This document shows, piece by piece, positions 137 to 57,379 of a stretch of DNA of 64,000 nucleotides. The position numbers and the translations under genes were made by a program. The notes under the pieces are model-generated. The model saw only the letters and a program-made list of their open reading frames with translations. It ran no database searches and had not been told where the DNA came from. Source of the stretch: Patescibacteria group bacterium (GTDB lineage: Bacteria > Patescibacteriota > UBA1384 > CAJBMM01); contig JBAZWC010000001.1 of assembly GCA_041660565.1 (NCBI GenBank), positions 430,481 to 494,480 on the forward strand. The letters are read 5' to 3'. Positions within the stretch are counted from its first letter, which is position 1; each line of letters begins with the position of its first letter.

Positions 137-1894
137 GTGAATCTCAAAATGATGGATAATTTTTCCAAGCTCAAATTTAAGAAAAATTTGTACTATTTTT
201 GGTATTGCTTGATTTTGTTTGCGATTTCTTCTTTTCCGTTAATTTCAAACTGGCTATCTAATCGATATCAGGTAACCGCAGCTGATTTGGTTCTGCCGAT
301 TATTTTGAATTCAATAACCGCGCTGGTGGTTGGTGCAATTTTCTGGCGCCAATACAAACAAAACAACTTAATTGGGGTGCTAACAGGCGGATTTACCATT
401 TTGTTCTTGACGCACCAATTTGCTAATCGATTAAATGCGGCTGGCACATTAATCAAAACAATCACCCCGTTTGCTAGTTATTCCACTGGTGTTTCGTTTT
501 TTCAGTACCTGTTTTTTCTGATACTGGTAATTGCAATCATCATGTATTTCTCGCACCGCCTCATTGCATACTTCCGCAACCAAAAATGGGAATTGGTAAT
601 ATGGTATCGTTCCGTAATAATTACCGTAATTACCATCTTTATTGTTCAATCCATGTTGGTCATTAAAATTGTCATTGCAGAATGGGCGCAATTTAGCTAT
701 CGCCCACCAACCCTTTCGGCAAATTTAAATACGACAAATAAACCAGATATTTATTACATCGTTCTAGACAGATACGCCAATCAAAACGTGCTCAAAACCC
801 AATTCAATTTTGATAACGGGGATTTCTTGAATTATTTGGATAAAAACGGCTTCACAGTAAACAATGACGCGCATAGCAACTATCCTTTTACTACGATGTC
901 TATTTCATCAACGATGAATGCCAACTATCAATCCGATATCGTGCAAAAGTTCGGCGGTGCATCTGAACAAACTTTAGAGCCGTTTCACGATTCAATTAGA
1001 TACAGCTCGGTTATTCAATCGCTCAAAAGTGCGGGATACAAATTTATCCAACTAGGCAGCTGGTATGAAGCCAGTAATCAAGCACCGCTTGCAGATCAGA
1101 ATCACCAACCCGACGGCCAACTTATCATACTAAATCATACTTTTACCCTGAATGATTTTGCCAAAAACCATTTAACTAACTCGTGGATTGGGCAAATTGT
1201 CTCTCGCGGACTAAATATTGGCCATTTTTCTGTACTTGGTTACAGCCAAATTAGCGAAGCAGACGCAACATTATATAAAATCCAACACCTCAAAGATTTT
1301 GCCAGCCAGTCTGCGGGCGGACGAGTAATCTTTGCGCACTTTTTAATCCCCCATGAGCCCTATTTGTTTAACGCCGATGGATCGTATTCCACCAACCCCA
1401 CCAGTGACAGCGTGGGAAAGCCGATCAAAACAAAATATACCGACCAAATTAAATTCATCAATAGTCAGATGAAGACCGTGATCGATCAGATCAATAAATC
1501 AAGTAGCAATCAAGCGATTATTGTTCTGCAAGCAGATGAAGGTGCGTATCCGATGCAAATGAACGGTCAGCTAAACGGGCAAGCGATTGAAGAGGAGTTA
1601 TCGGCAAGTGATATGCGCAACTGGTCGGATGCAGATTTGCAAATGAAATATGGAGTTTTAGCCGCATATCACATTCCAAAAGCTTCTGCGGCCCAAATTC
1701 AAACCAGCGCCGATTCGGTTAATGTGTTTCGGTTAATTTTTAATACCTATTTTGATGCCAAAATGGATTATTTACCCAAATGTTATTATGCTTACCCAAA
1801 CGGGCGCGCACAGTCGTTTGTCTTTGCCGATATTACCAAAAGATTGACAGGTAGTGATAACTCCTCCTGCCCCACCAACAGCAATTTTAAGTAG
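137..1894 (+). CDS. polytopic membrane protein with C-terminal sulfatase/LtaS-like (alkaline-phosphatase superfamily) exodomain
   Basis: 585 aa. The N-terminus is multi-TM. The extracytoplasmic part carries YYIVLDRYAN...NYPFTTMSISS and FAHFLIPHEPY, which resemble the LtaS/sulfatase fold. Confidence 0.5.
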   Translation: MNLKMMDNFSKLKFKKNLYYFWYCLILFAISSFPLISNWLSNRYQVTAADLVLPIILNSITALVVGAIFWRQYKQNNLIGVLTGGFTILFLTHQFANRLNAAGTLIKTITPFASYSTGVSFFQYLFFLILVIAIIMYFSHRLIAYFRNQKWELVIWYRSVIITVITIFIVQSMLVIKIVIAEWAQFSYRPPTLSANLNTTNKPDIYYIVLDRYANQNVLKTQFNFDNGDFLNYLDKNGFTVNNDAHSNYPFTTMSISSTMNANYQSDIVQKFGGASEQTLEPFHDSIRYSSVIQSLKSAGYKFIQLGSWYEASNQAPLADQNHQPDGQLIILNHTFTLNDFAKNHLTNSWIGQIVSRGLNIGHFSVLGYSQISEADATLYKIQHLKDFASQSAGGRVIFAHFLIPHEPYLFNADGSYSTNPTSDSVGKPIKTKYTDQIKFINSQMKTVIDQINKSSSNQAIIVLQADEGAYPMQMNGQLNGQAIEEELSASDMRNWSDADLQMKYGVLAAYHIPKASAAQIQTSADSVNVFRLIFNTYFDAKMDYLPKCYYAYPNGRAQSFVFADITKRLTGSDNSSCPTNSNFK

Positions 1895-4534: not shown

Positions 4535-4704
4535 TATCGCACCATCTTGCGAAATCACTCATTTCAGGCACCCATCTTGCGGAATAACACATTTGGATAC
4601 TCGTTTCACTCGCATCCAATTACAGAATGCTCGCTTTGGTCGCATTCTGAGCGCGTTATTCTACGCAAGTGGATGCTCGCTCGGGCGACGATACGCCCTC
4701 GCTC

Positions 4705-9120: not shown

Positions 9121-11889
9121 TTATTTGAGTTTGCGCGTTCGTCGTAATCTAAAGAGTGCGTAAACTAATATTGCAATAATACACGCAGAGAAAGCATAGA
9201 CAATCCATGCCCACAGCGGCAATGGATCTTTAGCAGCTTTAACAACTACGATTTCGGCGCGGTACGTTCCCGTGTTTACGGCCGGATCGGCAACCGCAAC
9301 ACTTTTTTCATAGCCAATGCCTTGGTACGCGAAAGCTAATACATGATCACCGACCGGAATGTTATTATAAACAACCACTCCATCTTCGTCCGTACTGGCG
9401 GTTTGAGGATCCGAGTGAATTGTAACCTCTAGTTTGCTAATGGGCTTGCCATCCGCATCCACTATTTTAAATTTGACTGTTTTAATCACTTTTTGACCAT
9501 TTTCCATTAGAATTTGGGTGTCAAAGAACTGTGAATCAGTGTCTGCTGTTGGACTAACTGAGGCAACCGGTGACGCGGCGGCGGAAGGAGAAGCAGATAT
9601 GGTAGACGCCGGGGTGGCTGTTGATCGAGTAGTAGCCGCGGTTGAATTTGTAGTGGTTGACGTAGTTGCCGTTGGGGTTGATGATGCCTCAGCGGTAGAA
9701 GTTGGAGTTGGTGTTGATGTCGCGGCGGTGGTAGGAGTAGAAGTAGGAGTTGATGTTGGGGTAGGGGTTGCGGCTGGTGAATCATCAACTGAAAAGCTTA
9801 TTTCGTAGTCGCTACTGTTTGTATTGCCAGCGCTGTCTAAACATCGGACATAATAGTGATATGTATTGCCGTCGGCTAAACCAGATACGGTTGCGGTATG
9901 AGAGGTACCATTAGAGGTGGTAAAACTGCCTGTCATCACTCCGTACGCCGTTCCTGCCGAGGTGGAGTATTTACACGTTGATGAACTATCAGTGGTCACA
10001 GATAATGTAGCCGAAGTGGTAGACGCATCTAATGTTCCGGAAGGAGACCCGCCAGATAAAACCGCAACGGTTTTATCTAGATAAATGCTCACCACGCCTT
10101 CGGCGATGTTGCCAGCGTTGTCAGTAGCCTTGATAGTAACCGTGTGGGTACCATCTGCAACCGCAGAGACATCTAGAGTATACGGGCTGGTAATTGAACT
10201 ACCATATGCTCCACTGTCTAATTTTAACTTATAGTTTGCAACGTCGCTGGCTGCATCACTGGTTGAAAACGACACGCTAATGGTGTCACTGTTTGTGGTC
10301 GCCGCCGGATCTGCAACCGGAGTAAAACCAGCCGGCGCAGATTTATCTACATAAACAGATACGGTATGTTCCCTAAAGTTACCTGCCGTATCAATCGCTT
10401 TAACGGTTACGGTGTGAGTGCCATCTGCCACTGCCGCAATGTTCAGCGTGTATGGGCTGGAAACGCTATCGGTGTAGGCACCGCTATCTAGCTTGATTGA
10501 ATAGCTCGCCACACCGCTGCCCGCGTCTGTGGTAGAAAATGAGATATCAGCCGAATTAGCAGATGTCCACGACGCCGGATTAGATGTAGGAGTAAACGCC
10601 ACTGGTGCAACAGAGTCAAACCCAATGTCGGCAATTGCCTGAGCAATCTGACCGTGGCCGGCAGTGTTATAATGAACACCATCTGAATTATACGCAGTTT
10701 GGATGTCCCATAAATTGCCCGCATCACCGCCACTTCTGAATTGCCCAACATACGATGAGGCATCAACAACAATTGCCTTAGAATAGTTGTTTGCTAATGT
10801 TGTGAGCGATGCATTCCAATCATCTCTAGTTTGCATTTGAGTGGTTGTTCCGTTTGTCCAAGGTAAAACTTTAATTACAACAATTCGATCAAGCGAAGAT
10901 TCTGCTTGAGCTGCATCTAACATAGACGTCCAATTAGCCAAAAACGTAGCCTTTAAAACCCCGCCAGCGATATCGTTTACACCACCTTCAATCACAACTG
11001 CCCTCGGTTTAAGAGCAACTATGTCAGCGGCGAAACGGGCGCTAATTTGAGCTGTAGTTTGAGAGCCAATTCCCATGTTTTGATAACTATAGCCGGTCAA
11101 TACGCCAAACTGACTCTCTATCGTAGACGCAATATTTGTGGTTGCGGTAGCCTCAAGAAAACTGTAATGCGCCGGATGCCCGGCGATAATTGAATCACCA
11201 ATAAAAGCTACCTGAGGCGCCTGCATATAAAACTCAATGGGGAGAACAGCACCGGCCAAAAACTCAGATGACCCCTCCCAGTTATAATCTGTAGTAGCGA
11301 CCGCTGAATTTGTATGATAGTAACTAGTTACCCCAGTAATTGACGTCTTGGCATAAAAAAACGATCCTTTTGTAGAAAGGATGACTTGATAACCGTAATA
11401 ATCCCCTTCTTGGACACCAGCAATTGGTGAGGCTAAATCTATTGTGGAATATTGCCCGGAGCTTAAACTGCTAATCAAGTTTTCACTCGCTCCAACCAAA
11501 TCATATGTAGCGCCATCTTTACGCCAAATTTTCACATAAAACTGCGCCAGTCCGGTGGTAGAAACTGTATAAATTCTAATGCGACTAACTGTCCCGCTTT
11601 CCCTAATACGATATTTTTGACCGATGGTAATATAATCACGGGTAGATGTATCGGAGCAGATTCCTGAGGCACATCCCCAGTTAGCCGCACCGGTAGTAAT
11701 AGTATCATACGGAGCCACTAATACTTTGTCAGAGTTTGCGGGATAGTCAGGATAGGCTAATGCGGTTTTAGGATTCACATACGATGGCGCCTCAGCCAGA
11801 ACCGATATAACAAGAAGTACGGTAACCAGTATCCAGAAAAAATGTCGCTTGGTGGGTAGTATTTTTTTAATCATATATCTCTCCTTCAT
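9121..11889 (-). CDS. large cell-surface protein with an SGNH/GDSL hydrolase domain, Ig-like repeats, Thr/Pro-rich linker and C-terminal TM anchor
   Basis: GDSIIAGHP and GGVNDI blocks. Long TPTSTPTSTPTT linker. The C-terminus is a hydrophobic helix followed by RRTRKLK. Confidence 0.65.
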   Translation of the reverse strand: MKERYMIKKILPTKRHFFWILVTVLLVISVLAEAPSYVNPKTALAYPDYPANSDKVLVAPYDTITTGAANWGCASGICSDTSTRDYITIGQKYRIRESGTVSRIRIYTVSTTGLAQFYVKIWRKDGATYDLVGASENLISSLSSGQYSTIDLASPIAGVQEGDYYGYQVILSTKGSFFYAKTSITGVTSYYHTNSAVATTDYNWEGSSEFLAGAVLPIEFYMQAPQVAFIGDSIIAGHPAHYSFLEATATTNIASTIESQFGVLTGYSYQNMGIGSQTTAQISARFAADIVALKPRAVVIEGGVNDIAGGVLKATFLANWTSMLDAAQAESSLDRIVVIKVLPWTNGTTTQMQTRDDWNASLTTLANNYSKAIVVDASSYVGQFRSGGDAGNLWDIQTAYNSDGVHYNTAGHGQIAQAIADIGFDSVAPVAFTPTSNPASWTSANSADISFSTTDAGSGVASYSIKLDSGAYTDSVSSPYTLNIAAVADGTHTVTVKAIDTAGNFREHTVSVYVDKSAPAGFTPVADPAATTNSDTISVSFSTSDAASDVANYKLKLDSGAYGSSITSPYTLDVSAVADGTHTVTIKATDNAGNIAEGVVSIYLDKTVAVLSGGSPSGTLDASTTSATLSVTTDSSSTCKYSTSAGTAYGVMTGSFTTSNGTSHTATVSGLADGNTYHYYVRCLDSAGNTNSSDYEISFSVDDSPAATPTPTSTPTSTPTTAATSTPTPTSTAEASSTPTATTSTTTNSTAATTRSTATPASTISASPSAAASPVASVSPTADTDSQFFDTQILMENGQKVIKTVKFKIVDADGKPISKLEVTIHSDPQTASTDEDGVVVYNNIPVGDHVLAFAYQGIGYEKSVAVADPAVNTGTYRAEIVVVKAAKDPLPLWAWIVYAFSACIIAILVYALFRLRRTRKLK

Positions 11890-25596: not shown

Positions 25597-25692
25597 ATTC
25601 TGCCCCTTTTATTTAAGATTAAGCGATCGGACCAAAATATGCAACAAATCCTTCGACAAAACCAGGAATCTAATCCTGAGCTTGTCGAAGGA

Positions 25693-30688: not shown

Positions 30689-30808
30689 ATAAATTCAGAA
30701 GATGGAAGATAGAGGATGGAGGATGGACCGAATATTCTATCTTCTATTTTCCATTTTCTATCCTCCAGATTGGTGGGACGCTAAGCGTCCCGTTTACCAC
30801 GCTTAGCG

Positions 30809-30884
30809 TGGTGCGCCTGGAAGGAATCGAACCTTCGACCCACTGCTTAGAAGGCAATTGCTCTATCCACTGAGCTACAGGCGC
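30809..30884 (-). tRNA. tRNA-Arg (anticodon TCT)
   Basis: The reverse complement reads GCGCCTGTAGCTCAGTGGATAGAGCAATTGCcttctaaGCAGTGGGTCGAAGGTTCGATTCCTTCCAGGCGCACCA. Confidence 0.8.
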
Positions 30885-31058
30885 AAATCGGAAGATAGAG
30901 GACGGAAGATCGAGGATAGAAAGATCCACTATCCAATATATATTTTAACATAATTTGACAAAAAATTCCACTCCATCTTCTATTTTCTATCTTCTATAAT
31001 TGCCACTAGCAATTTCGAAACTATGCGAGCTATGCTTGCTAGTTTCATCCTCCGATTT

Positions 31059-31132
31059 TGGAGCGAGTGAGGAGAATCGAACTCCCGTTTTATCCTTGGG
31101 AAGGACACGTTCTACCATTGAACCACACTCGC
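31059..31132 (-). tRNA. tRNA-Gly (anticodon CCC)
   Basis: The reverse complement reads GCGAGTGTGGTTCAATGGTAGAACGTGTCCttcccaaGGATAAAACGGGAGTTCGATTCTCCTCACTCGCTCCA. Confidence 0.75.
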
Positions 31133-32350: not shown

Positions 32351-33895
32351 ATGCATAAAAATTTTCCGCCTGCTGCAAAGCGATTTTTTGAAATACTACC
32401 CGGAGCCTTAACTTGGTCTGCGCTATTGTTACCAGCATTACTCGCTATTTGGTATCCAATACCAGTGGCTATTTTTGTGATCTGTTTTGATTTGTATTGG
32501 TTGTATCGTTCGGTCGAGCTATCTAACAACATCATTAGAGTTTACAACCGAATGCGCTCAGCTGCTAAAACAAACTGGCATCAGAAATTAGCTAGTCTAG
32601 GCAATACCATCACCCCGTGCGGATACAAACTTGATGAAGTGTATCAAGCTATCATCATTGTGGCGTACAAAGAACCGGCCGAGTTGCTGGAAGCCTCAAT
32701 AAATAGCTACGTAAATTCTAATTTCGATGTCAAAAAGCGCACCATTTTAGTCTTAGGCACCGAAGAGCGCGCTGGCGAACATAGTGATCATCTTAACCAA
32801 TATTTGTCGGAGCGATTTAAAGATAAATTTTTACGATTTGAACACACCATTCACCCTAAAAACATTCCGGGGGAGATTAAATGTAAAAGCGCTAACGCCA
32901 CGTGGGCTGCCAAGCATCTGTACAAAATTTGTGAAGAAATGCGTATTTCGCCAAAACAGGTTTTGTTACACAATTTCGACGCAGACACCCGAACGCACAA
33001 AGAATACTTTGCTTACGTACAGTGGAACTTTATGCACACACCACCAGACCAGCACACCTGCTATCAGCCAATCCACATTTATAACAACAACATCTGGGAC
33101 ACCGGCGCGCCAATGCGCGTTATCGCCATCAGCTCTACCTTCATTTTTATGCACAATACCATGCGCCCAACTCATTTTTACAACTTTTCCAGCCGCAGCG
33201 ACTGTTTTCAAACAGTGGTGGACATTGGCTACTGGACGGTGAACGCCATCCCCGAAGACTCACGCGAATATTACGACGCCTACTTTCGCTATAACGGCAA
33301 ATTGACCATCCAACCGCAATACATCCCGCTGTATATGGACGCGGTACTGTCTGAAGGATATTGGGGCAGCTTAATGAATCAGTACCGACAGCTGCGCCGA
33401 TGGGCGTGGGGTGTAATTGATTTGGCATATTTAGCCGAAAAATCTTGGAAAGACACTAAAATTCCATGGACATCTAAACTGGGACGCATTTTAGAACACA
33501 CCGAAAGCAACTTTTCCAGATCTACCACCGCGCTGTTTTTGGGATTTTTTGGCTGGATTCCGTTGATTGTAAACAATAGATTTCACGACACAATGATTGG
33601 TTATCATATGCTAAGCGTTACCCAAATTATTTTGACCTTGGCGATTGTGGGAACATTAACTTCGTTATACCTGTCGTATTTATTGCTTCCGCCGCGCCCA
33701 CCACATCACAAACCAATTAAATATATTGGCTTTTTGCTGCAATGGGTGTTGGTACCGTTTGTGTCGATATTCTTAGGCTCATTCTCGGCCATCGATGCCC
33801 AAACGCGGTTGATGTTTGGAAAATATCTAGAGTATCAAGTAACCGAAAAAGCGGTGGGGCAATCTACCAAAGCAGAGCTTGGGGCAAAATCTTAA
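32351..33895 (+). CDS. membrane GT2-family processive glycosyltransferase (cellulose/chitin synthase-like; QxxRW motif)
   Basis: N- and C-terminal TM bundles. Cytoplasmic GT-A domain with DAD and QYRQLRRWAWG. Confidence 0.65.
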   Translation: MHKNFPPAAKRFFEILPGALTWSALLLPALLAIWYPIPVAIFVICFDLYWLYRSVELSNNIIRVYNRMRSAAKTNWHQKLASLGNTITPCGYKLDEVYQAIIIVAYKEPAELLEASINSYVNSNFDVKKRTILVLGTEERAGEHSDHLNQYLSERFKDKFLRFEHTIHPKNIPGEIKCKSANATWAAKHLYKICEEMRISPKQVLLHNFDADTRTHKEYFAYVQWNFMHTPPDQHTCYQPIHIYNNNIWDTGAPMRVIAISSTFIFMHNTMRPTHFYNFSSRSDCFQTVVDIGYWTVNAIPEDSREYYDAYFRYNGKLTIQPQYIPLYMDAVLSEGYWGSLMNQYRQLRRWAWGVIDLAYLAEKSWKDTKIPWTSKLGRILEHTESNFSRSTTALFLGFFGWIPLIVNNRFHDTMIGYHMLSVTQIILTLAIVGTLTSLYLSYLLLPPRPPHHKPIKYIGFLLQWVLVPFVSIFLGSFSAIDAQTRLMFGKYLEYQVTEKAVGQSTKAELGAKS

Positions 33896-33902
33896 TTATT
33901 CC

Positions 33903-33946
33903 TTGTCATTCACGGAAAGACCTAAGAATCTATATAAAAAAAGTAG
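33903..33946. repeat. GTCATTC hairpin variant plus tctatataaaaaaag
   Basis: ccttgtcattcacggaaagacctaagaatctatataaaaaaag, directly after the GT2 stop. Confidence 0.5.
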
Positions 33947-33996
33947 CCCAGACTTCAGTCTGTTTCTTAAACATACTAAAGTATGATCTACAAGTT

Positions 33997-34026
33997 TGGA
34001 GCGGGTGAAGGGAATCGGACCCTCGT
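33997..34026 (-). pseudogene. tRNA-like 3' half (T-arm plus acceptor plus CCA)
   Basis: The reverse complement reads ACGAGGGTCCGATTCCCTTCACCCGCTCCA. There is no matching 5' half within 40 nt. It pairs with the 5' half at 34164-34191. Confidence 0.5.
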
Positions 34027-34060
34027 GTCAGAGTTTGCCCGTCCTCCGCAGTAGCAAATT

Positions 34061-34134
34061 TGGAGCGGGTAACGGGAGTCGAACCCGTATCTTCACCTTG
34101 GAAGGGTGTCATAATACCGCTATACTATACCCGC
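34061..34134 (-). tRNA. tRNA-Gly (anticodon TCC)
   Basis: The reverse complement reads GCGGGTATAGTATAGCGGTATTATGACACCcttccaaGGTGAAGATACGGGTTCGACTCCCGTTACCCGCTCCA. Confidence 0.8.
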
Positions 34135-34163
34135 AAAAAACTGCTACGGAGGATGGAGAAAAC

Positions 34164-34191
34164 TCGCGCTCTACCATTGAGCTACACCCGC
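34164..34191 (-). pseudogene. tRNA-like 5' half (acceptor plus D-arm)
   Basis: The reverse complement reads GCGGGTGTAGCTCAATGGTAGAGCGCGAG. Its acceptor GCGGGTG is perfectly complementary to CACCCGC of the 3' half at 33997-34026. Confidence 0.5.
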
Positions 34192-34234
34192 TTCAGTAGA
34201 GATGGCTGTGCCATCCGTAACCTTGGCGAAGGAT

Positions 34235-34310
34235 GGTCGGGGTGGTCGGACTTGAACCGACGGCCTCATCGTCCCAAACGACGCGCGCTAGCCAACTGCG
34301 CCACACCCCG
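34235..34310 (-). tRNA. tRNA-Pro (anticodon TGG)
   Basis: The reverse complement reads CGGGGTGTGGCGCAGTTGGCTAGCGCGCGTCGtttgggaCGATGAGGCCGTCGGTTCAAGTCCGACCACCCCGACCA. Confidence 0.8.
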
Positions 34311-34323
34311 AAATATATTCTCC

Positions 34324-34358
34324 TGTCATTCCCGCGAAGACGGGAATCCAGTCTATGA
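34324..34358. repeat. GTCATTCC hairpin repeat (gtcATTCCCGcgaagaCGGGAATccagtctat)
   Basis: Inverted repeat read directly from the sequence. Confidence 0.6.
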
Positions 34359-34443
34359 ACAAATTTCCTAACGAATCACTTATAAATCATAGCATAAAAA
34401 TGGATTTTGGGCAATAAAAAATATTAAATTATAAGCGCCGGGC

Positions 34444-34814: not shown

Positions 34815-36506
34815 ATGATTAAACGACTAAAGAGCCTTAAACCATGGCAAATTGTGCTGCCAATAATTGTTGCACTGCTGGTAGCGCAATTTATTTTGCA
34901 AGTTGATTTAGCTAAAAAAGACTCTCAAACTATCGATGAAGCGGTGCACATTGGCGCCGGTTATACCTATTTAACCAAGGGTGATTATCGTTTTAACGCC
35001 GAACATCCCCCTTTGGTCAAAGAAATCGCCGCGTTTCCCCTACTATTTCTTAATCTAGACCCAAACCAAGATCCAACCGATTGGAACAACGCCGGCCATT
35101 ATTATTTGGACCCGTACGGGTATTCGGGTAACTGGGGCCACAATTTGCTCTACTACTCAAACGTGGCCGTAGACACCATTCTTTTTTACGCCCGCATTGG
35201 CCCAATGCTGTTGACCACGTTGCTGGGAGCGGTAATTGCGCTGGTAGCTATTTTGGCTTTTGGCTGGTGGGCCGGCTTAATTGCCACTGTGCTTTACGTA
35301 CTAGACCCGGCGTTTACCGGTCATGGCCATTTAGCCACCACCGATATTGGCGCCACTTTGGGATACATCGCCGGAATTGCCTCACTTTGGTATCTAATCA
35401 AAAAACCATCATATAAGTCTGCCGCCATTTTTGGCGTCGCCTTAGGCATTGCCAATTTACTCAAATTTACCATGCTGGCGCTAGGTCCAATATCTATTAT
35501 GCTGCTTGGCGGGTATATCATCTACAACATTGAGGCAAAAAAAGACAAAGCAAAGCGATGGTGGCTGCTTTTCGTCTCATTTATTGTTGCCACAGTGGTG
35601 ATATGGGCGGGATATGGTTTTCACCGCACCACGCTACCGATGGACACCGGATACGATGCTTATGGGCAGGTAATAGCCGAACCGTTTAACGGCGCTTTAA
35701 GGCAATTATACGATTTTGACAACATCGCCAAATGGGTTCCACTGCCAACCGATTATCTAAAAGGCGCGGCAATGGTGCTTAATCACACCGGCGGCGGACA
35801 TCCATCATTCTTGTTTGGCGAGTCAAAGGACTCGGGTTGGTGGTACTATTTCCCGGTCATTATTACCATAAAAACCCCAATTATCAGCCTGTTTTTGATG
35901 ATTTTTAGCCTGGCGGTGGTGATTAAGCAACGCAAAAAAAATCAGTTTGCGGTATTTTTGATCGCATCATCGTTAATTTATCTGACTATCAGCATGCTTT
36001 CCCACGCCAATCTGGGTATTCGACACATTTTGCCATTCTACCCTTCTTTGTTTATTGTAGTCGGATATGTTTTTACGTTATTGAGCAAGAAACTTAAGAT
36101 TGTATTTTCGGTACTACTAGCCGTTTTAGCTATCCAATTTGCGTTGATGTATCCATTTTATCTATCATATTTTAACCAATTCGTGGGTGGATCTTACAAC
36201 GGCTATAAATATGCCACTGACTCCAATTTAGACTGGGCACAAGATTTGCATCGCATAAAAACATACACCGATACTCACAACTTAGGTGTGCCGTACGTTT
36301 TCTACAACTGGGACGGTGACGATGCGATAGATATGTACGGCATCCCGCGCCGACCAAACGCCAATCTTGCCACAGACAGATCCGGCTATATGATAATTGG
36401 TGCTTCCACATTACAATCACCGGAAATGCGCTGGTTGTTCAGCTATCAATTAGTTGATAAAATTACCCCCGGAGTTCTAGTATTTAATTTGGACAAATTA
36501 AAATGA
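34815..36506 (+). CDS. GT-C family glycosyltransferase (ArnT/PMT-like, polyprenyl-phosphate-sugar dependent)
   Basis: DEAVHIGAGYTYL..HPPL N-terminal loop motif, at least 11 TM helices, C-terminal extracytoplasmic domain. Confidence 0.65.
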   Translation: MIKRLKSLKPWQIVLPIIVALLVAQFILQVDLAKKDSQTIDEAVHIGAGYTYLTKGDYRFNAEHPPLVKEIAAFPLLFLNLDPNQDPTDWNNAGHYYLDPYGYSGNWGHNLLYYSNVAVDTILFYARIGPMLLTTLLGAVIALVAILAFGWWAGLIATVLYVLDPAFTGHGHLATTDIGATLGYIAGIASLWYLIKKPSYKSAAIFGVALGIANLLKFTMLALGPISIMLLGGYIIYNIEAKKDKAKRWWLLFVSFIVATVVIWAGYGFHRTTLPMDTGYDAYGQVIAEPFNGALRQLYDFDNIAKWVPLPTDYLKGAAMVLNHTGGGHPSFLFGESKDSGWWYYFPVIITIKTPIISLFLMIFSLAVVIKQRKKNQFAVFLIASSLIYLTISMLSHANLGIRHILPFYPSLFIVVGYVFTLLSKKLKIVFSVLLAVLAIQFALMYPFYLSYFNQFVGGSYNGYKYATDSNLDWAQDLHRIKTYTDTHNLGVPYVFYNWDGDDAIDMYGIPRRPNANLATDRSGYMIIGASTLQSPEMRWLFSYQLVDKITPGVLVFNLDKLK

Positions 36507-42357: not shown

Positions 42358-42454
42358 GAATGATTTGTCATCCATGGTCCTAGTGGCAGAGATGGCTGTG
42401 CCATCCGTAGCTTTCTTGACCTTCCGAAGCTTTAGCGTAGGAGGTAGCGAAGGA

Positions 42455-57182: not shown

Positions 57183-57303
57183 CTCCCCTCGCTATAAATA
57201 AAGATCTACTACCATTATACACAATGGTGATTATATGCAACAATTTATCACAAAAAAAGACCTTTCGGTCAAAGTGGCTTGAGTTTCGAGTTAATTACAA
57301 AGG

Positions 57304-57379
57304 ATGGCTGGGGAGGAGGGACTCGAACCCCCGAATGCCAGGACCAAAACCTGGTGCCTTACCACTTGGCGACTCCCCA
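57304..57379 (-). tRNA. tRNA-Gln (anticodon TTG)
   Basis: The reverse complement reads TGGGGAGTCGCCAAGTGGTAAGGCACCAGGttttggtCCTGGCATTCGGGGGTTCGAGTCCCTCCTCCCCAGCCA. Confidence 0.8.

Follow-up and report, generated by a model that had tools for sequence, protein, structure and literature searches.

To our knowledge, group I introns and large integrative elements are the only interruptions described in bacterial tRNA genes, and no protein-based tRNA splicing pathway is known in bacteria. A functional RNA can be housed inside a tRNA intron, as is the case of the box C/D RNA in the intron of archaeal tRNA-Trp. Miniature inverted-repeat transposable elements (MITEs) and repetitive extragenic palindromic (REP) elements mobilised by RAYT transposases are small, non-autonomous palindromic elements. 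In the literature that we searched, the interruptions of bacterial tRNA genes are group I introns (10.1101/2020.01.27.920355). In archaea, disrupted tRNA genes were described as intron-containing, split or permuted (PMC4090602, PMC3978253, PMC3293823), and the tRNA-Thr gene of Caldiarchaeum provides a case involving an integrative element (PMC3293823). The rRNA genes of the candidate phyla radiation (CPR) contain abundant intron-like insertions, tRNA genes not being mentioned in this connection (PMC11270868). Here, we analysed a stretch of 64,000 nucleotides (nt) from a Patescibacteria group bacterium (assembly GCA_041660565.1, contig JBAZWC010000001.1, positions 430,481 to 494,480), hereafter called the window, in which a complete tRNA-Gly(UCC) gene (34134..34061) sits within the two halves of a second tRNA gene (34191..33997), all on the minus strand. 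We consider it rather probable that this locus arose by insertion of a hairpin-bounded tRNA cassette into a resident tRNA gene of identical anticodon, between its positions 35 and 36. Such interruption and replacement of tRNA genes is recurrent in Patescibacteria-like bacteria, apparently undescribed, and more than a one-off pseudogene. No paper in the literature that we searched, whose coverage was partial so that this does not prove novelty, describes one tRNA gene nested within another in bacteria.

The outer 5' half (34191..34158, GCGGGTGTAGCTCAATGGTAGAGCGCGAGTTTTC) comprises positions 1-35, that is the acceptor strand, the D arm, one strand of the anticodon stem and the first four bases of the loop, its last base being the anticodon C35. 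It is followed by a leader of 23 nt which forms the left inverted-repeat arm (34157..34135, TCCATCCTCCGTAGCAGTTTTTT), by the inner tRNA-Gly(UCC) of 74 nt with its encoded CCA (34134..34061), by a trailer of 23 nt which forms the right arm (34060..34038, AATTTGCTACTGCGGAGGACGGG) and finally by the outer 3' half, which runs from C36 through CCA (34037..33997, CAAACTCTGACACGAGGGTCCGATTCCCTTCACCCGCTCCA). The insert, composed of leader, inner tRNA and trailer, is 120 bp long and contains no open reading frame (ORF). The inner gene was called by ARAGORN as tRNA-Gly(tcc) at 34061-34134(-) and reached 64.6 bits with the Rfam tRNA model RF00005, for a threshold of 29. The original prediction, made from the letters of the sequence, that a complete tRNA-Gly(TCC) lies between two tRNA halves was borne out, as regards the complete gene by both programs and as regards the halves by our reading of the sequence. 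The acceptor strands of the halves, which it described as perfectly complementary, do form seven of seven Watson-Crick pairs, and the D stem (4/4) and the T stem (5/5) of the outer gene are also unbroken. The flanking inverted repeats are present too, as arms of 21 nt that are 76% complementary in a repeat search, with the core UCCUCCGUAG and CUGCGGAGGA. Each half proved longer than first proposed; TTTTC belongs to the 5' half and CAAACTCTGAC to the 3' half. The termini of the insert, TCCATCCTCCGTAG and CTGCGGAGGACGGG, agree at 11 of 14 positions, and the complementarity of leader and trailer extends almost from end to end.

When the two halves are joined, the anticodon loop reads UUUUCCAA, within the rejoined sequence ...GAGUUUUCCAAACUC... 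(at the RNA level, GAGUUUUC-CAAACUC at the junction), and ARAGORN calls a tRNA-Gly(tcc) of 75 nt; the outer gene is therefore UCC and not GCC. The joined gene has a canonical cloverleaf and an anticodon loop of 7 nt, with a C27-U43 mismatch and a variable loop of 5 nt due to one extra base. The second tRNA had been taken at first for a tRNA-Gly(GCC), and the finding of an uninterrupted GCC gene elsewhere in relatives had been proposed as a sign of mere pseudogene debris. We rejected this assignment, and with it the proposal built on it: no choice of junction yields GCC and the intact homologues are UCC. L129, one of the relatives, does possess an intact tRNA-Gly(GCC) which adjoins tRNA-Pro and has the same acceptor stem.

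A metagenome scan with a 23-mer of the outer 5' half gave 34 loci with intact tRNAs sharing this 5' part, none of them nested. The first 34 nt of the intact tRNA-Gly(UCC) in L157, L164, L149, L143, L152, L154 and L165 match the outer 5' half; this 5' identity is partly due to the construction of the search, which is not the case of the 3' identity. The closest intact homologue is the tRNA-Gly(UCC) of L157 (GCGGGTGTAGCTCAATGGTAGAGCGCGAGTTTTCCAAACTCGATACGAGGGTCCGATTCCCTTCACCCGCTCCA), 96% identical to the joined outer gene. The joined gene departs from it at two places only, by an additional T on the 3' side of the anticodon stem and by a substituted base in the variable loop; none of the nine intact homologues has the extra T. 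In L154, L157, L149, L164 and L165 (more distant), the order is a homologue of the window's gene for a 514-aa protein, a gene for a family-39 glycosyltransferase (GT39), tRNA-Pro(UGG), the intact outer-type tRNA-Gly(UCC), tRNA-Arg(UCU) and tRNA-His. By this gene order, in which it comes after tRNA-Pro(UGG), the outer gene is the native tRNA-Gly(UCC) of the locus. The inner tRNA, with the D arm GTATAGCGGTATTAT, is of another sequence family; 49 of 76 positions are identical between the two genes, and both have the anticodon UCC. In many tRNA-Gly of the group, the T loop is UCCGAUU or UCCGACU, in which C replaces the nearly universal U55 (pseudouridine). We observed such loops in the outer gene of the window (34011-34017), in L157, L149, L164, L003 and L128, in the inner gene of L129 and in others, some of which are presumably functional.

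RNAfold predicts for 33993-34192(-) a nested double cloverleaf of -76.4 kcal/mol (z = -4.2), and none of 200 shuffled sequences is as stable. In this predicted structure, the outer anticodon stem is continued by the paired repeats, which gives an interrupted helix of about 22 bp whose geometry is that of the intervening sequences of rRNA type; the outer C35 pairs with the final G of the insert, and the helix contains 1x1 mismatches and a single bulge of 1 nt.

The nested arrangement is not confined to the window. We deleted each of 172 tRNAs (about 50 loci) together with 0-40 nt on each side, reran ARAGORN on the joined flanks and discarded the hits obtained with few combinations of leader and trailer length, which correspond to tightly packed tRNA clusters. 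By inspection of the loci with most combinations, three nested loci were retained, the window, L129 (GCA_964359635.1 at NCBI, whose neighbouring protein is 54% identical to that of the window) and L143 (a JGI metagenome contig). In L129, an outer tRNA-Gly(CCC) (312-345/461-500), split between C35 and C36 as in the window, contains an inner tRNA-Gly(CCC) (365-438) with the leader TCCATCCTCCGTAGCAAGT and the trailer CCTTGCTACTGCGGAGGACGGG. In L143, an outer tRNA-Cys(GCA) is split between C35 and A36 and contains an inner tRNA-Cys(GCA) (214-287(-)), with the leader CTGCCCGACGCACATT and the trailer ATGCGCTATGGGCGGCGGGC. For all three joined outer genes, ARAGORN gives the anticodon of the respective inner tRNA. 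The inserts are 120, 115 and 110 nt long, 74 nt of each being tRNA. In L152, a close relative of L143, the outer Cys gene is uninterrupted, its halves being 100% and its flanks 98-100% identical to those of L143, with an ambiguity of 2 nt at the junction; L143 and L152 thus represent a filled and an empty site. The proposal that a tRNA gene was disrupted by a tRNA-carrying element bounded by inverted repeats gains support from this pair, from the cut between C35 and C36 and from the native character of the host gene.

The arms of the repeat are more conserved than functional tRNAs. Those of the window and of L129 are identical at 36 of 36 positions, made up of the first 16 nt of the leader and the last 20 nt of the trailer, whereas between the same two genomes the orthologous tRNA-Pro and tRNA-Thr are identical at 64 of 78 and 62 of 78 positions. 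With a per-site identity of about 0.8, a run of 36 identical positions would arise with a probability of about 3e-4. The cargo is not constant, being a UCC tRNA in the window and a CCC tRNA in L129, L130 and L125, the CCC type of L125 differing from that shared by L129 and L130. Joined head to head and with no tRNA, the arms also occur as a hairpin of 36 nt in two unrelated viral contigs of IMG/VR, L171 and L177, with at least 34/36 identity. The hairpin of L171 (TCCATCCTCCGTAGCAGAGCTACTGCGGAGGACGGA, about 1505-1545(-)) is intergenic and has a possible 7-bp direct repeat, ATAATCA, on both sides, in a region which is itself repetitive. That of L177 (TCCACCCTCCGTAGCAGGGCTACTGCGGAGGACGGG, about 9630-9667(-)) lies inside the ORF of a Mu-like head protease, just past the protease domain, and the gene of the major head protein adjoins. 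The hairpin corresponds to no Rfam family and has no match in cultured phage genomes or plasmids, and we found neither a cargo-bearing copy nor a Cys-type hairpin in viral contigs. Taken together, these sequences suggest that the repeat module acts as a palindromic element in its own right, one that moves horizontally.

Several relatives carry partial or decayed versions of the arrangement. In L130, which is orthologous to L129 and has inner tRNAs 93% identical to those of L129, degradation affects the leader, the trailer and the outer stems. Upstream of a tRNA-Gly(CCC), L125 retains a clean 5' half of the outer gene and the leader TCCATCCT (TCCATCCTTAG), and it lacks the 3' half; this tRNA-Gly(CCC) is syntenic to that of the window. 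In L003 and L169, which form one lineage (Gly genes identical at 74 of 75 positions) and are the closest GT39 relatives (53%), an inner-type tRNA-Gly(UCC) lies beside the same genes as in the window, and no remnants of outer halves were detected at these two loci. The tRNA-Gly(CCC) of the window (31132..31059, minus strand) is flanked upstream by ...ATGGTTC-TGTCC..TCATCCGA and downstream by TCGGAGGATGA, flanks which may be those of a decayed older insertion; alignment tests gave p values of about 0.05-0.2, so that this is not secure. A scan of the contigs for crowded Gly 3' ends with the pattern CCCGCTCCAN{35,64}CCCGCTCCA gave 120 matches, due to chance in GC-rich coding sequences, L019 and L020 alone being real.

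How does this locus compare with the described systems? Like the group I introns of bacterial tRNAs, the intervening sequence lies in the anticodon loop, is precise, shows no target duplication and is sporadic among relatives, and in the window and L129 it follows a pyrimidine and ends in G. The base before the insert and its last base are C and G in the window and L129, and C and C or U and G in L143 owing to the ambiguity of 2 nt, for a group I expectation of U, rarely C, and then G. Unlike these introns, the cassette has no ribozyme core, measures 110-120 nt, contains a complete tRNA and shows no sign of self-splicing, and its position 35/36 is site 4 in the numbering of 10.1101/2020.01.27.920355, which is not a classical site. 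The Intron_gpI covariance model had no match up to E = 10 for the locus of the window and up to E = 1 for L129 and L143. A group I intron was therefore rejected on these grounds and on that of length, a ribozyme requiring about 200 nt or more; an insert of 120 nt of which 74 nt are tRNA cannot hold a group I core.

With the archaeal introns of bulge-helix-bulge type, the locus shares an interrupted tRNA gene and a helix between intron and exon sequences. It differs from them by its bacterial host, by an insertion inside the anticodon rather than at 37/38 and by a group in which no splicing endonuclease is known. We rejected such an intron, since the predicted helices contain no bulge-helix-bulge, a motif of two bulges of 3 nt with 4 bp between them, and a bulge of 3 nt is possible only on the trailer strand, away from the junction; genes for a splicing endonuclease or ligase are not encoded in the 64-kb window. 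The alternative of a split or intron-like tRNA, which the original prediction had left open, found no support, given the lack of an Rfam group I match, the short insert, the lack of a bulge-helix-bulge and the absence of a call by ARAGORN in intron mode. Running that program with intron options had been suggested as a check, and the outer tRNA was not called. The embedded RNA being a tRNA of the same anticodon, splicing would in any case be unnecessary.

Like the integrative elements that target tRNA genes, such as tyrosine-integrase islands and phages, the cassette has a tRNA gene as target, supplies a replacement sequence and leaves fragments of the old gene. However, these elements measure kilobases, possess their own recombinase and a direct repeat of the att core and leave one fragment, whereas the cassette is 120 bp long, with no ORF, no direct repeat, inverted-repeat ends, a whole tRNA and both halves on its flanks. 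A conservative site-specific recombinase product was rejected because the junctions share no core (left GAGTTTTC/TCCATCC, right GGACGGG/CAAACTC, with at most 2 nt of ambiguity in L143/L152) and no target duplication is present. The intervening sequences of rRNA and the CPR rRNA insertions are also short and patchy, have complementary ends which make a long helix of a hairpin loop and, for the latter, occur in the same bacterial group. An rRNA whose intervening sequence is excised works in pieces, whereas a tRNA cut in its anticodon cannot work and would be rescued by the cargo tRNA; the cassette encodes no homing endonuclease. Finally, like MITEs and REP elements, it is a protein-less unit of about 36-120 bp with terminal inverted repeats, with near-identical copies in unrelated contexts and with a filled/empty pair. 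It departs from them in that no target-site duplication at the tRNA insertions, no copy excess in the window and no associated transposase were found, and by its tRNA cargo and its target, a fixed bond in the anticodon of a cognate tRNA.

Based on these data, we propose the following scenario for the inserted cassette. The nested unit would be transcribed together with tRNA-Pro from an upstream promoter, and pairing of the repeats would lengthen the outer anticodon stem to a helix that bears the inner cloverleaf at its tip. RNase P and 3'-end nucleases would free the inner tRNA, which would be the working tRNA-Gly(UCC), and the outer halves, deprived of an anticodon loop, would be unable to decode. 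The insertion would cost nothing and be tolerated because the insert brings a replacement for the gene that it destroys. The outer halves would then drift and decay, as may be seen from the extra base in the anticodon stem of the window and from the heavy decay in L130 and L125. The inner tRNA would constitute a fresh copy of the target and repeated invasion is conceivable; this would explain why the clean outer half of L125 accompanies a different inner gene and would account for the possible older remnants at the tRNA-Gly(CCC) of the window. The inserting activity would have to act in trans; it is encoded neither in the cassette nor in the window.

Several observations weigh against this scenario. 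Pfam scans of about 50 ORFs of the window revealed no transposase, integrase, homing endonuclease, reverse transcriptase or RNA ligase, and none of the proteins that might move or splice the cassette is encoded in the cassette itself. Neither a target-site duplication nor a shared recombination core was seen at the three tRNA insertions. In the 64-kb window we found no second copy of the repeat module beyond chance; the motifs are not enriched and a single copy is intact. In L129, the outer gene and the repeats are fully intact, with T arm and acceptor identical at 28 of 28 positions to those of the functional L157 gene, and the insertion is apparently common to L130, the neighbouring proteins of the two being only 61% identical. 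This contrast between L129 and L130 is less well explained by simple neutral decay than by selection on the outer part or by a recent re-invasion. In addition, since a tRNA-Gly(UCC) is able to read GGG by wobble, it is not obvious that selection would impose identical inner and outer anticodons in the two CCC cases; the mechanism may sense the anticodon.

Some of these points would be accounted for if the insert behaved as an intron and both tRNAs matured, RNase P and 3' processing freeing the inner tRNA, an endonuclease (RNase III-like or of another type) cutting the helix and the outer tRNA being ligated between C35 and C36. The outer cloverleaves are intact in three independent cases, the position is 35/36 in three of three, the outer anticodon always equals the inner one, and the repeat arms (36/36) are better conserved than functional tRNAs (about 80%); the L129 outer gene is intact though its insertion looks older than the split of L129 and L130. 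The insert of the window and of L129, which follows C and ends in G, also recalls the -1/omega pattern of one class of tRNA group I introns (10.1101/2020.01.27.920355). We nevertheless hold this possibility for quite unlikely, since neither a ribozyme core nor a bulge-helix-bulge motif was found, the product would duplicate the function of the inner tRNA, the outer halves are decayed or lost in L130, L125, L003 and L169 and, in the window, the anticodon stem of the outer gene contains one base too many. The arms moreover occur as a bare hairpin in viral contigs, once in a head-protease ORF, where no tRNA splicing is at stake. Alternatively, the outer gene, although non-decoding, could serve as a scaffold in cis, its acceptor and T arm and the helix being kept to aid expression of the inner tRNA by recruiting RNase P, offering an RNase III site or stabilising the precursor. 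The stable nested fold (z = -4.2) and the intact acceptor and T arms of the window, L129 and L143 agree with such a role, as does the outer 3' half of L130, whose T stem is different and yet perfectly paired and whose acceptor strand pairs at 6 of 7 positions with the 5' half. Leader and trailer also pair around other tRNAs, such as the Lys of the window or the Gly of L165. A role of this kind is still unlikely, considering that the inner-type tRNA of L003 and L169 does without halves and repeats, that most tRNAs of the window have no such pairing (only Gly(UCC), Gly(CCC) and Lys do) and that the identity of the arms across genomes and the bare viral-contig hairpins would be left unexplained.

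Simple rearrangement without any mobile element, by tandem duplication of neighbouring Gly tRNA genes followed by deletions, is very unlikely and is already largely refuted by the identity of the arms and by the recurrence and filled/empty data. In its favour, tRNA loci are hot spots of rearrangement here: the Pro-Gly segment is inverted with respect to L003, a serine-recombinase element is present at the tRNA-Pro of L125 and the 3' end of tRNA-Pro is duplicated in L003. The 3' ends of the inner and outer genes are also 84% identical over 32 nt, including 7 nt beyond the CCA. However, two deletions at one anticodon bond would be required, abutting inverted repeats would not be produced, and the 35/36 architecture in three genes and genomes, the L143/L152 pair and the identical arms in L129 and in viral contigs cannot be explained in this way. 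A chimera of two tRNA-Gly genes in the contig of a metagenome-assembled genome (MAG) might be suspected, because the Logan contigs of the same run break in tRNA-Pro and in the inner tRNA and L128 has a run of N at this intergenic region. This is extremely unlikely: the Logan assembly of SRR18595301 (L167), an independent contig, is base-identical from the downstream gene through the outer 3' half and the trailer into the 3' part of the inner tRNA and thus reproduces the junction exactly, which argues that the nested arrangement is not an artefact of MAG assembly. Besides, the inner and outer genes have no k-mer in common long enough to mislead an assembler, and the same architecture exists in assemblies of other projects, L129 (NCBI) and L143 (JGI). 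It may be added that assemblies stop at this locus, by a run of N in L128 (5740-5845), within tRNA-Pro in L004 and within the inner tRNA in L167; perhaps strain variation, for instance the coexistence of filled and empty alleles, makes the locus difficult to assemble.

With cassette insertion as our preferred explanation, the significance of the locus lies in a pattern that recurs for Gly(UCC), Gly(CCC) and Cys(GCA), a tRNA within a tRNA of the same anticodon, at a fixed bond of the anticodon and in a conserved hairpin frame whose arms are identical in the Gly pair. Mobile cassettes, if this is what they are, would represent a new strategy by which selfish DNA remains harmless, that of carrying along a spare copy of the target. 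They would also provide a new route for the horizontal replacement of tRNA genes, and for their turnover, in reduced genomes with a single copy of each. Maturation of both tRNAs would, on the contrary, imply that bacteria splice tRNAs by a protein-dependent pathway not known before. We put at somewhat below even the chances that the locus stands for an entirely new category of mobile element or for a novel bacterial pathway of tRNA processing. The new element would be a protein-less, self-compensating palindromic module of about 36 bp, with a complete tRNA at its centre, which could re-invade repeatedly in Patescibacteria-like bacteria. Standard tRNA finders report the inner gene only, so that the nested arrangement is invisible in current annotations, and two accidental encounters among about 170 tRNAs suggest that it may be common in the group.

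Concerning transcription, a promoter-like site (TTGCCC-17-TATGAT with TG, 34386..34414, minus strand), recognised only by its match to the consensus, lies upstream of tRNA-Pro and is likely the start of the unit comprising Pro and the nested genes. The tRNA-Pro(UGG) itself (34310..34234, minus strand), found by ARAGORN and with about 64 bits for the Rfam tRNA model, is in the same orientation directly upstream of the nested unit. Its 3' trailer hairpin (CCAtccttcgccaaggttacggatgg) and the motif ggcacagcca are kept in L003, matching at 28 of 31 positions, a score that none of 300 shuffles reached. A terminator-like hairpin (CAGACTGAAGTCTG) followed by a T-rich run (33935..33962, minus strand), again only a match to the consensus, lies about 35 nt past the 3' end of the outer gene, and the consensus scan found no promoter-like or terminator-like site inside the nested unit on the minus strand. 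The hairpin repeat ggattcccg...cgggaatgaca and degenerate copies of it flank the tRNA locus (34324-34350 and 33904-33921). Repeats of the type gtcattcc/gtcattgcgag, similar to this bracketing hairpin, occur in relatives, at 5590-5670 in L125 and at 660-700 in L169.

The neighbours of the locus in the window are the GT39 gene (34815-36506), whose product shows 100% identity to a protein (locus tag WC773_02310) encoded on a 516-kb contig of a Patescibacteria group bacterium MAG, and the gene for the 514-aa protein (32351-33895). The window contains 13 tRNA genes and housekeeping genes for RNase Y, glycolysis, ABC transporters, thymidylate metabolism, RNase HII and others. Its G+C content varies from 0.39 to 0.59 across bins of 2 kb, reaching for example 0.58 at 14-16 kb and 0.59 at 26-28 kb.

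In L125 and L168, the closest relative at 71%, which we extended by 10 kb, no tRNA-Gly(UCC) was found and an element with a serine recombinase and a diversity-generating retroelement (DGR) is present at tRNA-Pro, an event separate from the insertion of the cassette. In these ENA BUCK21 scaffolds (L125 5756-9515, L168 2418-12177), the gene of a large serine recombinase abuts the 3' end of tRNA-Pro(UGG), which its ORF overlaps, and is followed by Bro-N, bAvd, an Lcl_C-domain protein and a reverse transcriptase, that is an integrated DGR-carrying element. It occupies the place of the nested Gly gene of the window, and L169 may be its other junction. In L003 (29-105), the 3' end of tRNA-Pro (catccccgacca) is repeated 35 nt downstream of the gene, which looks like an integration footprint.

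A few other features of the tRNA genes were observed. The sequence tccttcg... directly follows the CCA of several tRNAs and opens a hairpin that includes the CCA end, for instance CCAtccttcgacaa...ttgtcgaaggat after Asp. It is found on the minus strand at 25650-25692, 34190-34233, 42410-42454 and 57260-57304, 3' of tRNA-Asp, Pro-UGG, Pro-CGG and Gln, as well as at 57-135 in L003, and may be a 3'-processing or termination signal of the lineage. The spacers between Gly-CCC, Arg-UCU and His (30690-31058, minus strand) contain purine-rich runs (ggaggatagaaaatggaaaatagaagataga) followed by their pyrimidine-rich complements (tccatcctccatcctctatcttcc), which form inter-tRNA hairpins, and the 9-mer CCATCCTCC of the cassette leader is also found 31 nt upstream of tRNA-His. 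Between tRNA-Arg(UCG) and tRNA-Lys(CUU) (window 4535-4600) lie two short repeats, gcacc(c)atcttgcg(a/g)aat, the second of which opens with the first 8 nt of tRNA-Lys (GCACCCAT); they may be fragments of the 5' end of the tRNA-Lys gene. Finally, on the contig with the nested Cys genes, L143, a match resembling a type III hammerhead ribozyme (1779-1835(+), 39.1 bits, E = 1e-5, under the gathering score of 48.5) is located between a kinase-like ORF and tRNA-Arg(CCG).

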